Of a DNA stretch of 16,196 nt, positions 1,276 to 2,487 are shown in pieces. The position numbers and the translations under genes were made by a program. The stretch's first letter is position 1, and each line of letters opens with the position of its first letter. The notes beneath the pieces were generated by a model that did not search any database, had not been told where the DNA came from, and saw only the letters and a list, made by a program, of their open reading frames with translations. This DNA comes from Candidatus Thorarchaeota archaeon (lineage in GTDB: Archaea > Asgardarchaeota > Thorarchaeia > Thorarchaeales > Thorarchaeaceae): assembly GCA_046758445.1 (NCBI GenBank), contig JBHIAE010000061.1:1-16196 (forward strand). The letters are read 5' to 3'.

Positions 1276-2487
1276 TCACTTCATTGTTTCAATCGCAATC
1301 TGCAGACTCTCGAATAGCTCACTCGCGGCAACCTGTAGAAGTTCTGAGTCTTCTGACAGTACATCAATTCGCAGTTTCGACAGGTCTCCCTTAGCATGTC
1401 CGACTATGGTAACTGTGACAGATATCCTTGAGGCACTGAACTTGCCGAGGCCAGTCCCCACGGCAACTCCCATGGACATCTCATCTTGCTTGCTGGACTC
1501 AGCCCGTAGAAGGTGCAGATTCTTTCTCGTTAGAGTTTCCTTTACGAGTTTGAAGAGCGACTTTGGGTTAGCCTCCACGACATGCTCCCGGTTCCAGTAG
1601 GCCTTCCCCCTCTTCATCTCTGAAAACTCATCCAAGGACATCTCAAGTGGCTGAATCTGGTTGTATAAAGACCTTACGAAGCAGTTACCAGCTTTCGCAG
1701 CCACTTTGTCATAGTTTCTGTCAAAGAACGTCACTGATGTGATGATCTCGCCCTCGATGGCCTCCGACGTTATCTCAAACCTGAATGTCCTCACTTCACG
1801 GCCACCTGGCTTCAACGCTTCAACTGTCTGAGTGTTATCTTCTACTAGTCTAAGGCTGTCTGCAGGATAAGTAAGGACAGTAATTGTCAAGTCTGCAGCG
1901 AGGTCTTCACTGACATTGTTGACGGTGACTCTGAACTCTAGCTCACTATCAGAGATCGAAACTCCGCTCATCACAGTCACATCGTCATTTGTGCGCAGCG
2001 GTGTAGGCTCCATGCGAAGTATGACTGCATCATCCACAACAGGGGCTCTTTCAGGCATGGTCTCAGGCCCTTCCTCGCCATGAGCCTGCAGCCATCCAAC
2101 AGAATAGTTCAGAGCCTCCCTGACTCTCTCATCATTATCTCCAAGATATCCCTTGAGAGTCGGAATCGCATTCTTGGTTCCTACTGAGGCCAACACGCCG
2201 ACCGCCGCTACACGCACAGACCCACTATCGTCGTCCAAGGCCATCTCTAGAGCGTCAGTCGCTTCTAATCCGAAGTCTCCTAGACGGCAGACTGCCAGGA
2301 GTCTGACATCCTCTTCTCCAGTGAGCGCCGCATCCTTGCAAGCTTGGATGGAAGTCATTCTCTCGAGCGCAATTCTGATGGTATCCTCTCTGTGTCCAAG
2401 GATTCTGCTCATGGCTTTCTTGAGTCCTCGAAGAGCCTCGCCTCCCCCAAATGAACGGGTGGATGTCGTTTCTTCCTTCTCGGCCAT
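1276..2487 (-). CDS. HEAT-repeat protein with C-terminal adaptin/coatomer appendage-like domains (Ig-like sandwich + platform)
   Basis: N-terminal HEAT-like repeats (EDVRLLAVCRLG, DDSGSVRVAAVGVLA, DNDERVREAL), a Pro/Glu-rich linker, a beta-rich Ig-like region (LEFRVTVNN...ALKPGG), then IQPLEMSLDEF...KLRIDVLSEDSELL, resembling appendage platform subdomains. ATG at 2487 is preferred over the ORF-track start at 2571. Confidence 0.75.
   Translation of the reverse strand: MAEKEETTSTRSFGGGEALRGLKKAMSRILGHREDTIRIALERMTSIQACKDAALTGEEDVRLLAVCRLGDFGLEATDALEMALDDDSGSVRVAAVGVLASVGTKNAIPTLKGYLGDNDERVREALNYSVGWLQAHGEEGPETMPERAPVVDDAVILRMEPTPLRTNDDVTVMSGVSISDSELEFRVTVNNVSEDLAADLTITVLTYPADSLRLVEDNTQTVEALKPGGREVRTFRFEITSEAIEGEIITSVTFFDRNYDKVAAKAGNCFVRSLYNQIQPLEMSLDEFSEMKRGKAYWNREHVVEANPKSLFKLVKETLTRKNLHLLRAESSKQDEMSMGVAVGTGLGKFSASRISVTVTIVGHAKGDLSKLRIDVLSEDSELLQVAASELFESLQIAIETMK

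Follow-up and report, generated by a model that had tools for sequence, protein, structure and literature searches.

Adaptor ears, or appendages, are interaction hubs of eukaryotic vesicle coats. They bind short peptide motifs, those of the FxDxF/DPF type being bound in alpha-adaptin by the platform tryptophan W840. In beta-COP the ear is C-terminal, after a HEAT region and a flexible linker, and its two subdomains, a beta-sandwich and a platform, form a unit. Here we describe a protein with the same arrangement, encoded in a 16,196-nucleotide (nt) stretch of Candidatus Thorarchaeota archaeon DNA (GenBank assembly GCA_046758445.1, contig JBHIAE010000061.1, positions 1 to 16,196; hereafter the window). 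The gene occupies 1276..2487 on the minus strand and encodes 403 amino acids (aa); we refer to its product (P0004) as the HEAT-ear protein. Its C-terminal ~240 aa are very probably a homologue of the adaptin/COPI appendage, as judged from a strong match of the predicted fold together with weak but concordant sequence evidence. On balance we favour the view that the protein as a whole is a soluble scaffold with two docking heads that serves a Rab/WD40/Ras/Roadblock gene island, with an ear that comes from a pool of Asgard ear modules and was joined to its stalk by convergent fusion.

How trunk, hinge and ear came to be joined is a question in eukaryogenesis. Asgard/archaeal adaptin appendage modules, consisting of Ig-like and TBP-like parts, have been described (Liu et al. 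2021, 10.1101/2020.10.19.343400; Makarova et al. 2024, PMC10936438), as a sequence-only reading of the window had noted, and the published ear fusions involve Vps28-C/Vps23, longin, GOLD, zinc ribbon and E3-UFM1 (Liu 2021; Makarova 2024, PMC10936438). The ear described here is of the same class, and variable fusion partners, zinc ribbons, transmembrane (TM) linkers and tandem ears agree between the published modules and its relatives. Unlike the published Asgard ears, the orthogroup of the HEAT-ear protein has a HEAT stalk, is soluble and lies in a Rab island rather than in a locus of the ESCRT (endosomal sorting) complexes. Surveys that looked for the parts of adaptor protein (AP) large subunits found them and reported them unfused: AP domains are stated to be 'not fused to each other', with the ear never found downstream of Adaptin_N (Eme 2023). 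Our search of the freely accessible literature found no published description of a HEAT-plus-ear chain.

Predicted fold of the ear

An ear-only AlphaFold2 (AF2) model, built on an alignment of 28 sequences (A2), reached a predicted local distance difference test score (pLDDT) of 93.1 and a predicted template modelling score of 0.81. The appendage references were beta-COP (Pfam families Coatamer_beta_C and Coatomer_b_Cpla; 9qpq chain H residues 723-953, and 5a1u chain G), AP2 (1w80, 1b9k, 3hs8, 1e42 and 2iv9) and gamma-COP (1pzd and 1r4x). The best match of the model (VIA) is the beta-COP appendage 9qpq_H, with a Z-score of 19.1 and a root-mean-square deviation (rmsd) of 2.9 Å over 224 of 243 residues at 15% identity. 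The AP2 alpha ears follow at Z 15.9-16.6, the beta2 ear at 14.2, the gamma-COP ear at 13.2 and BBS9 at 11.9, and matches to Ig domains only top out at Z 12.7. Sandwich and platform superpose as a single unit on the beta-COP, AP2 alpha, beta2 and gamma-COP ears; the AP2 alpha/beta2 and gamma-COP ears have the same two-subdomain fold over 207-215 residues, at 7-12% identity. In the predicted structure, then, an Ig sandwich is rigidly packed on a TBP-like platform, the arrangement that marks an appendage.

The full-length model, compared with 48,161 PDB representative chains independently of Foldseek, gave a concordant ranking. The AP2 alpha ear 1w80_A came first (Z 16.2, rmsd 4.2 Å, 214 residues, residues 160-395 of the model), followed by the AP4 beta platform (Z 14.1), the beta2 ear (13.7), the gamma-COP ear (13.1) and BBS9 (11.9). 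The AP4 beta match, 2mj7, concerns the platform subdomain, with 119 residues aligned at an rmsd of 2.5 Å. A Bet v 1/cytokinin-binding protein, 2flh, was also considered for the platform alone and set aside, its Z of 10.7 being below that of the AP4 beta platform and of the whole-ear matches. In Foldseek the top 18 matches are all COPI or AP2 ears (E 2e-12). A structure search in ESM Atlas, which uses its own model, returned beta-COP and AP2 alpha at a template modelling score of 0.67, and the nearest named feature clusters there are adaptin and COP ears at 0.83-0.89, scores that the tool rates as leads only.

The sequence-only reading had proposed a comparison of the C-terminal region with the beta-COP, gamma-COP and AP2 appendages, all of which match its sandwich and platform. 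The outcome that would have spoken for something else, matches to CARDB or S-layer Ig domains only, did not occur, and whole ears outrank Ig-only structures.

Sequence signal of the ear and platform motifs

Sequence comparisons point in the same direction, at low scores. Over residues 274-338 the protein matches Pfam Coatomer_b_Cpla at E 0.13 (12.7 bits against a gathering threshold of 32.7), and 17 of the 51 aligned family members match this family, the best at E 1.9e-4. None of the appendage families of Pfam (Coatomer_b_Cpla, Coatamer_beta_C, Alpha_adaptinC2, B2-adapt-app_C) is matched above its gathering threshold. The orthogroup profile A2 reaches beta-COP among PDB sequences at a non-significant E of 0.62. 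When this profile is widened with paralogues (A3), beta-COP rises to the top among all PDB sequences (E 0.034, not significant alone), and HMMER aligns the profile to beta-COP residues 826-882. Beta-COP is the only PDB family that the ear profile reaches, and it does so at the correct position; the junction QP, the Phe of FxxxW and a second Trp (W298) line up. The region of the Coatomer_b_Cpla match is where the sequence-only reading had seen a beta-COP-like string, and the beta-COP sequence it cited is real. PDB profile matches to S-adenosylmethionine decarboxylase, TFIIS and acylphosphatase (E 0.07-0.8) are short and non-significant, have no fold support and were rejected. A Pfam match to Pcc1 (residues 370-403, E 8.7e-4) occurs in one of the 51 members only and was taken as chance.

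An FxxxW motif marks the beta- and gamma-COP platforms (PMC2262067). In platform helix alpha1 of the HEAT-ear protein, F288-S-E-M-K292 (1612..1626, minus strand) aligns in HMMER to this position, beta-COP having F-R-Q-M-W. The Phe is kept and the Trp position is taken by K292, which is conserved in at least 90% of 51 sequences; the replacement of the platform Trp that had been suspected from the string EFSEMK is real, and the AP2 alpha platform Trp likewise has no equivalent. The first platform strand carries W298-N-R-E-H302 (1582..1596, minus strand), which is invariant and orthogroup-specific. In the alignment its W298 falls on the second Trp of beta-COP (FEWENK). The ear paralogue P0125, introduced below, lacks the motif, and the patch is not common to ear paralogues.

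Gene call and domain layout

The protein is encoded by a single open reading frame on the minus strand, with its ATG at 2487 and its stop codon at 1276-1278. A TTG at 2571 lies in frame upstream and would add 28 residues (open stretch 2488-2571, minus strand). Some 120 homologues, 397-408 aa long, can be aligned over their whole length and start where ATG 2487 falls, and therefore we favour the ATG as the start; the coordinates first assigned to the gene are correct. One public gene call for the protein (P0005) has 425 aa and starts upstream of ATG 2487. The number of end-to-end homologues also establishes the family as a real conserved protein. Matches in genome loci are 36-91% identical to the HEAT-ear protein, and the source labels of homologues, where given, are Thorarchaeota or a related Asgard name.

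A full-length AF2 model (pLDDT 82) was built on the 51-sequence alignment, in which we also counted columns conserved at 90% or more. The protein begins with a disordered tail, residues 1-36 (2380..2487; this and the following segments on the minus strand), with pLDDT 29-48, a semi-conserved GGGE...LKKAM motif and 3 of 36 columns conserved. The HEAT domain, residues 37-140 (2068..2379), comprises about three PBS-lyase-type repeats, supported by a HEAT_2 match and by paired helices at 37-136 in the model, those from residue 47 on being assigned as HEAT pairs. With 31 of 104 columns conserved it is the most conserved part, and the linker is the least. The longest nearly invariant stretch, SIQACKDAALTG, forms the first HEAT helix (residues 46-57, 2317..2352); S46, Q48, A49, D52, A53, A54 and T56 are invariant in all 51 sequences, which makes this helix a candidate partner-binding face. 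A flexible linker or 'hinge' follows at residues 141-162 (2002..2067; pLDDT 39, below 50 at 142-159), where 0 of 22 columns are conserved. The Ig-like beta-sandwich of the ear spans residues 163-275 (1663..2001), with strands at 165-273 in the AF2 models, and the TBP-like platform spans residues 276-403 (1279..1662), with an alpha1-beta-alpha2-beta4-alpha3 layout at 278-402; both have pLDDT above 90. The parts first read off the sequence, about three HEAT repeats, a linker, a beta-sandwich and an alpha/beta C-terminal domain, are thus all present in the Pfam match, the model and the conservation pattern.

The protein has no signal peptide or TM helix, and we take it to be soluble and cytoplasmic. 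No clathrin-box-like motif was seen in the ~20-aa linker; we know of no clathrin in these archaea.

The HEAT stalk and the comparison with adaptins

The stalk is a clear member of the PBS-lyase-type HEAT proteins (alphaRep 8aw4_B and 4zv6, CpcE/F, YibA, MTH187), above the gathering threshold: Pfam HEAT_2 is matched at 62 bits against a cut-off of 27.7 (E 6.8e-17), HEAT and HEAT_PBS match too, and HEAT_2 is found in 51 of 51 family members. Against the PDB, the stalk profile retrieves alphaRep designs, YibA and MTH187, down to E 5e-32. AlphaRep designs are also its best structural matches (24-32% identity), led by 8aw4_B (VIA; Z 15.4, rmsd 2.5 Å, 32% identity). Unlike those proteins, the stalk has only about three repeats and is fused to an ear, and it shows no sign of a lyase or hydroxylase function. 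The AP1 beta and beta-COP trunks match it at Z 12.2-12.8, no better than dozens of other HEAT proteins such as condensin, proteasome and importin.

Adaptin_N (PF01602) was not matched in the HEAT-ear protein at E up to 1 in Pfam, and the 25 families matched in most of the 51 members do not include it. The helical region has 104 aa against ~500-600 aa for the Adaptin_N trunk of large subunits; beta-COP, 15% identical in its ear, differs from the HEAT-ear protein in its ~500-aa Adaptin_N trunk and in its FxxxW Trp. A flexible hinge is present, but at ~20 aa it is much shorter than adaptin hinges, and the FxxxW Trp typical of adaptin/COPI large-subunit platforms is replaced by K292. No membrane-binding element was seen in the protein. 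In its own genome (92.7% complete), no gamma-, delta- or zeta-type partners were detected, mu-homology domains being outside the search, and Adaptin_N gave sub-threshold matches only, in another HEAT protein on contig C28. Clat_adaptor_s (PF01217, the sigma/zeta type) was not matched there either, and control genomes gave none.

The stalk is accordingly a generic 104-aa PBS-lyase-type HEAT domain and not an Adaptin_N trunk, and the HEAT-ear protein is not a real miniature adaptin; the likeness is in form only. Of the original description as a miniature adaptin/coatomer large subunit, the order HEAT-linker-ear-platform stands. The identity gives way before the generic HEAT_2 stalk, the ~20-aa linker, the missing FxxxW Trp and the lack of a detected sigma/zeta-like gene.

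An Asgard pool of ears and the range of the orthogroup

An exhaustive search with the ear profile found the ear in 357 clusters at 50% identity. In a look for eukaryotic members, ten matches traced among the best 150 of these 357, all at E of 1.2e-17 or below, proved archaeal or unlabelled. The sampled ear proteins come from Thor- and Lokiarchaeota, where the ear is fused to SBBP, LVIVD and WD40 propellers, beta-helices and zinc ribbons, and in many of them a hydrophobic (TM) helix precedes the ear by 25-50 residues. Such ears are most likely cytoplasmic tails of membrane proteins. Seven large Asgard proteins of 1000-2900 aa (P0146, P0148, P0151, P0154, P0186, P0196 and P0273) combine SBBP/LVIVD propellers or beta-helices with one hydrophobic helix and, 25-50 residues further on, an ear. 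They resemble membrane receptors whose cytoplasmic tail is an adaptin-type ear, their topology being taken from a simple hydropathy scan. Some family members have two ears in tandem. One soluble paralogue, P0132 (Thorarchaeota, 695 aa), carries tandem ears (~118-345 and 426-655) and a C-terminal zinc ribbon.

The sole ear paralogue in the window's own genome is P0125, a 416-aa protein encoded on the plus strand of contig C41 (genome G000, 17542-18792; the same gene as L042:1063-2313). It has two N-terminal TM helices, a linker, an ear that is 22% identical over 236 aa to that of the HEAT-ear protein and, at the C-terminus, a CxxC...CxxC zinc ribbon; Pfam returned no match for it.

We surveyed 301 genomes of the phylum with the ear profile, the check on distribution that had been suggested at the outset. 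The profile matches 71 of 76 genomes in the family of the window, 12 of 68 in a second family and a few others, with no match in the 25 further Asgard families sampled. Orthologue-level scores (E below 1e-60, frames mostly ~400-450 aa) were obtained in only ~41 genomes, from seven genera of the own family. Judged by these scores, the orthogroup is limited to some genera of one Thorarchaeal family, a narrow range.

Gene neighbourhood and Thor-Rab

The HEAT-ear gene lies in a Rab/Roadblock island in 40 of 40 genome loci. The usual order starts with an EF-2 paralogue, followed on the other strand by TPR, KaiC, KaiC, Trx/KaiB-like and Roadblock; next come Rab, WD40, HEAT-ear and Ras2, the WD40 (378 aa) and Ras2 genes both lying on the strand opposite to the HEAT-ear gene. 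In the window the string Roadblock - Trx/KaiB-like - KaiC - KaiC - 791-aa TPR occupies 3336-8017 on the plus strand and the EF-2 paralogue 8014-10194 on the minus strand, an order kept in every locus with enough flank. The Roadblock/LC7 gene itself (3336..3725, plus strand; Pfam Robl_LC7, E 7.3e-6) is present in all those loci, is divergent from the Rab gene and marks a conserved island edge. The Rab-like GTPase gene (2580..3128, minus strand; Pfam Ras, E 1.7e-52) lies directly upstream of the HEAT-ear gene on the same strand, with a 92-nt spacer. Gene order by Rab is kept across proteins that are just 50-60% identical.

The window's clade lacks the WD40 gene, so that Rab there adjoins the HEAT-ear gene, and a ParA/MinD-like gene replaces Ras2 downstream. 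Elsewhere a seven-blade WD40 propeller gene of 378-380 aa lies between the Rab and the HEAT-ear gene, for example at L011:6701-7837, L004:6737-7873 and L024:6701-7843, all minus strand. The protein tree shows at least two origins of the WD40-less arrangement (the window's clade; L007) amid loci that bear WD40, and the direct Rab adjacency in the window is derived, through loss of the WD40 gene. The WD40 neighbour is without an orthologue in the own genome (best identity 35%). The Ras2 orthologue of this genome, 88% identical, is found among redox genes on contig C47 (G000, 8633-9199; L066:1501-2067, plus strand). This relocated Ras2 adjoins molybdopterin-binding, polyferredoxin and DUF3786 genes. 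The proximity to a Rab-like gene that had first drawn attention to the locus therefore holds for the window, Rab being directly upstream, but it is derived: in most lineages WD40 lies between, and related genomes keep the island without the HEAT-ear gene.

An A/T-rich element, ATAAGTATTAAT, lies within the Rab/HEAT-ear spacer at 2527-2538 (minus strand), 40-51 nt upstream of the ATG. From its sequence and position it could be the HEAT-ear gene's own TATA box, and co-transcription with Rab would then not be required.

The upstream Rab matches 7EZB ('Thorarchaeota Rab') over its full length at E 8.3e-90 and is, by sequence comparison, an orthologue of the crystallised Thor-Rab (7EZB/7EZD/7EZE). 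The sequence of 7EZB is 100% identical to the product of L024:6146-6691, from the same locus in Thorarchaeota SMTZ1-45 (gene 6146-6694), where the Thor-Rab gene lies 1.3 kb upstream of its HEAT-ear orthologue. A Rab11-like intrinsic GTPase activity has been measured for Thor-Rab, with no GTPase-activating protein, guanine-nucleotide exchange factor or effector named (Tran et al. 2024, PMC10933270).

Proposed role and alternatives

HEAT/ARM solenoids are classic GTPase effectors. If the HEAT-ear protein is a docking scaffold, its invariant HEAT face (SIQACKDAALTG) would hold one partner, and a GTP-bound small GTPase of the island would be the likeliest candidate because of this precedent. The ear would recruit further proteins via the orthogroup-specific platform patch (FxxxK, WNREH), much as the ears of adaptors take up short peptides. 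It was most likely drawn from the large Asgard pool of ear modules, which are mostly cytoplasmic tails of membrane proteins, and its adaptin-like domain order would be explained most simply by convergent fusion, not by descent from an ancestral mini-adaptin. The protein is thus a candidate partner for the neighbouring Rab-like GTPase, and a GTPase-effector mechanism is a tentative proposal that we judge possible and not probable. A more ambitious version, in which GTP-bound Thor-Rab recruits the HEAT face and the ear gathers the WD40 propeller and ear-tailed membrane proteins, so that the HEAT-hinge-ear chain serves as a minimal coat adaptor, strikes us as improbable.

Several observations weigh against a docking scaffold of the island. 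The Trp that makes the peptide site of eukaryotic platforms is absent from the HEAT-ear protein. Its own genome has no WD40 orthologue and keeps Ras2 elsewhere. Three genera (g6, g13 and g14), with genomes that are 92-98% complete, have Rab, WD40, Ras2 and Roadblock next to one another but lack the HEAT-ear gene, which is therefore dispensable for the island and an optional insert in it. In most lineages no GTPase gene shares the orientation of the HEAT-ear gene, whose flanking WD40 and Ras2 genes lie on the opposite strand, so there is no operon evidence for it. Finally, the stable order of the EF-2 paralogue, TPR gene and KaiC pair is family-wide, and proximity may partly reflect slow rearrangement.

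The main alternative is one that we consider rather unlikely: the protein would belong to a network of ears and membrane proteins instead of acting as a GTPase effector, pairing or competing with the cytoplasmic ears of membrane paralogues or taking part in ESCRT-linked sorting, and the Rab neighbourhood would be conserved order only. In most ear-bearing paralogues, indeed, the ear closely follows a TM helix of a membrane protein, a single paralogue of this kind is encoded in the own genome, Asgard ears have been tied to Vps28/Vps23 fusions (Liu 2021; Makarova 2024), and the gene is optional within the island. Set against this, in 40 loci the gene is never found outside the Rab/Roadblock island, a Pfam scan of the window proteins found no ESCRT gene, and the WNREH patch is not shared with paralogues, so that a common ear-ear interface is not evident. 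The domain order itself could instead be read as that of a true miniature proto-adaptin, a remnant or near relative of the progenitor of adaptin/COPI large subunits, which would work with Rab, WD40 and Roadblock as a minimal coat. No structure is nearer than beta-COP, which is also the one PDB family that sequence searches reach, a WD40 propeller and two small GTPase genes flank the gene in most lineages, and a fused trunk and ear is what Eme 2023 sought and did not find. Yet the 104-aa stalk is generic HEAT_2 without an Adaptin_N match at E up to 1, the own genome yielded no Clat_adaptor_s-like gene (control genomes gave none either), no membrane-binding element was seen and the FxxxW Trp is lost. 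The orthogroup, moreover, is confined to part of the genera of one family, with no match in the 25 other Asgard families sampled; two losses of WD40 left the ear protein in place, and some lineages with WD40 lack the ear protein. We give this origin little credence.

The possibility that the ear likeness is fortuitous, the C-terminal region being a generic prokaryotic Ig/CARDB-type surface domain next to an unrelated alpha/beta domain, is extremely slight and already contradicted by the fold and sequence evidence. It can draw on Ig-only matches to TRAP beta, transglutaminase and complement at Z 10-12.7, on the Bet v 1-like match to the platform alone at Z 10.7 and on the Pcc1 match at E 8.7e-4. 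Every two-subdomain match, however, is an adaptor ear ranked above the single-domain matches, the superposition with beta-COP covers 224 of 243 residues at 2.9 Å, an independent sequence signal leads to the beta-COP platform, the protein has neither signal peptide nor TM helix, and Pcc1 is matched by one of 51 members only.

Implications for Asgard adaptor evolution

The orthogroup shows a helical-repeat stalk, a hinge and a beta-COP-like ear in one archaeal chain, parts that surveys had reported as unfused (Eme 2023), though its stalk is generic and its range narrow. The only Thorarchaeal Rab that has been both crystallised and assayed for GTPase activity belongs to this locus, and it has no known effector (PMC10933270). 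If the HEAT-ear protein binds Thor-Rab, it would be the first Asgard Rab effector; if it does not, Asgard ear modules would serve something other than GTPase-driven recruitment. A minimal coat adaptor, if that is what the chain is, would be either a prokaryotic forerunner or an independent invention of GTPase-driven adaptor and coat recruitment.

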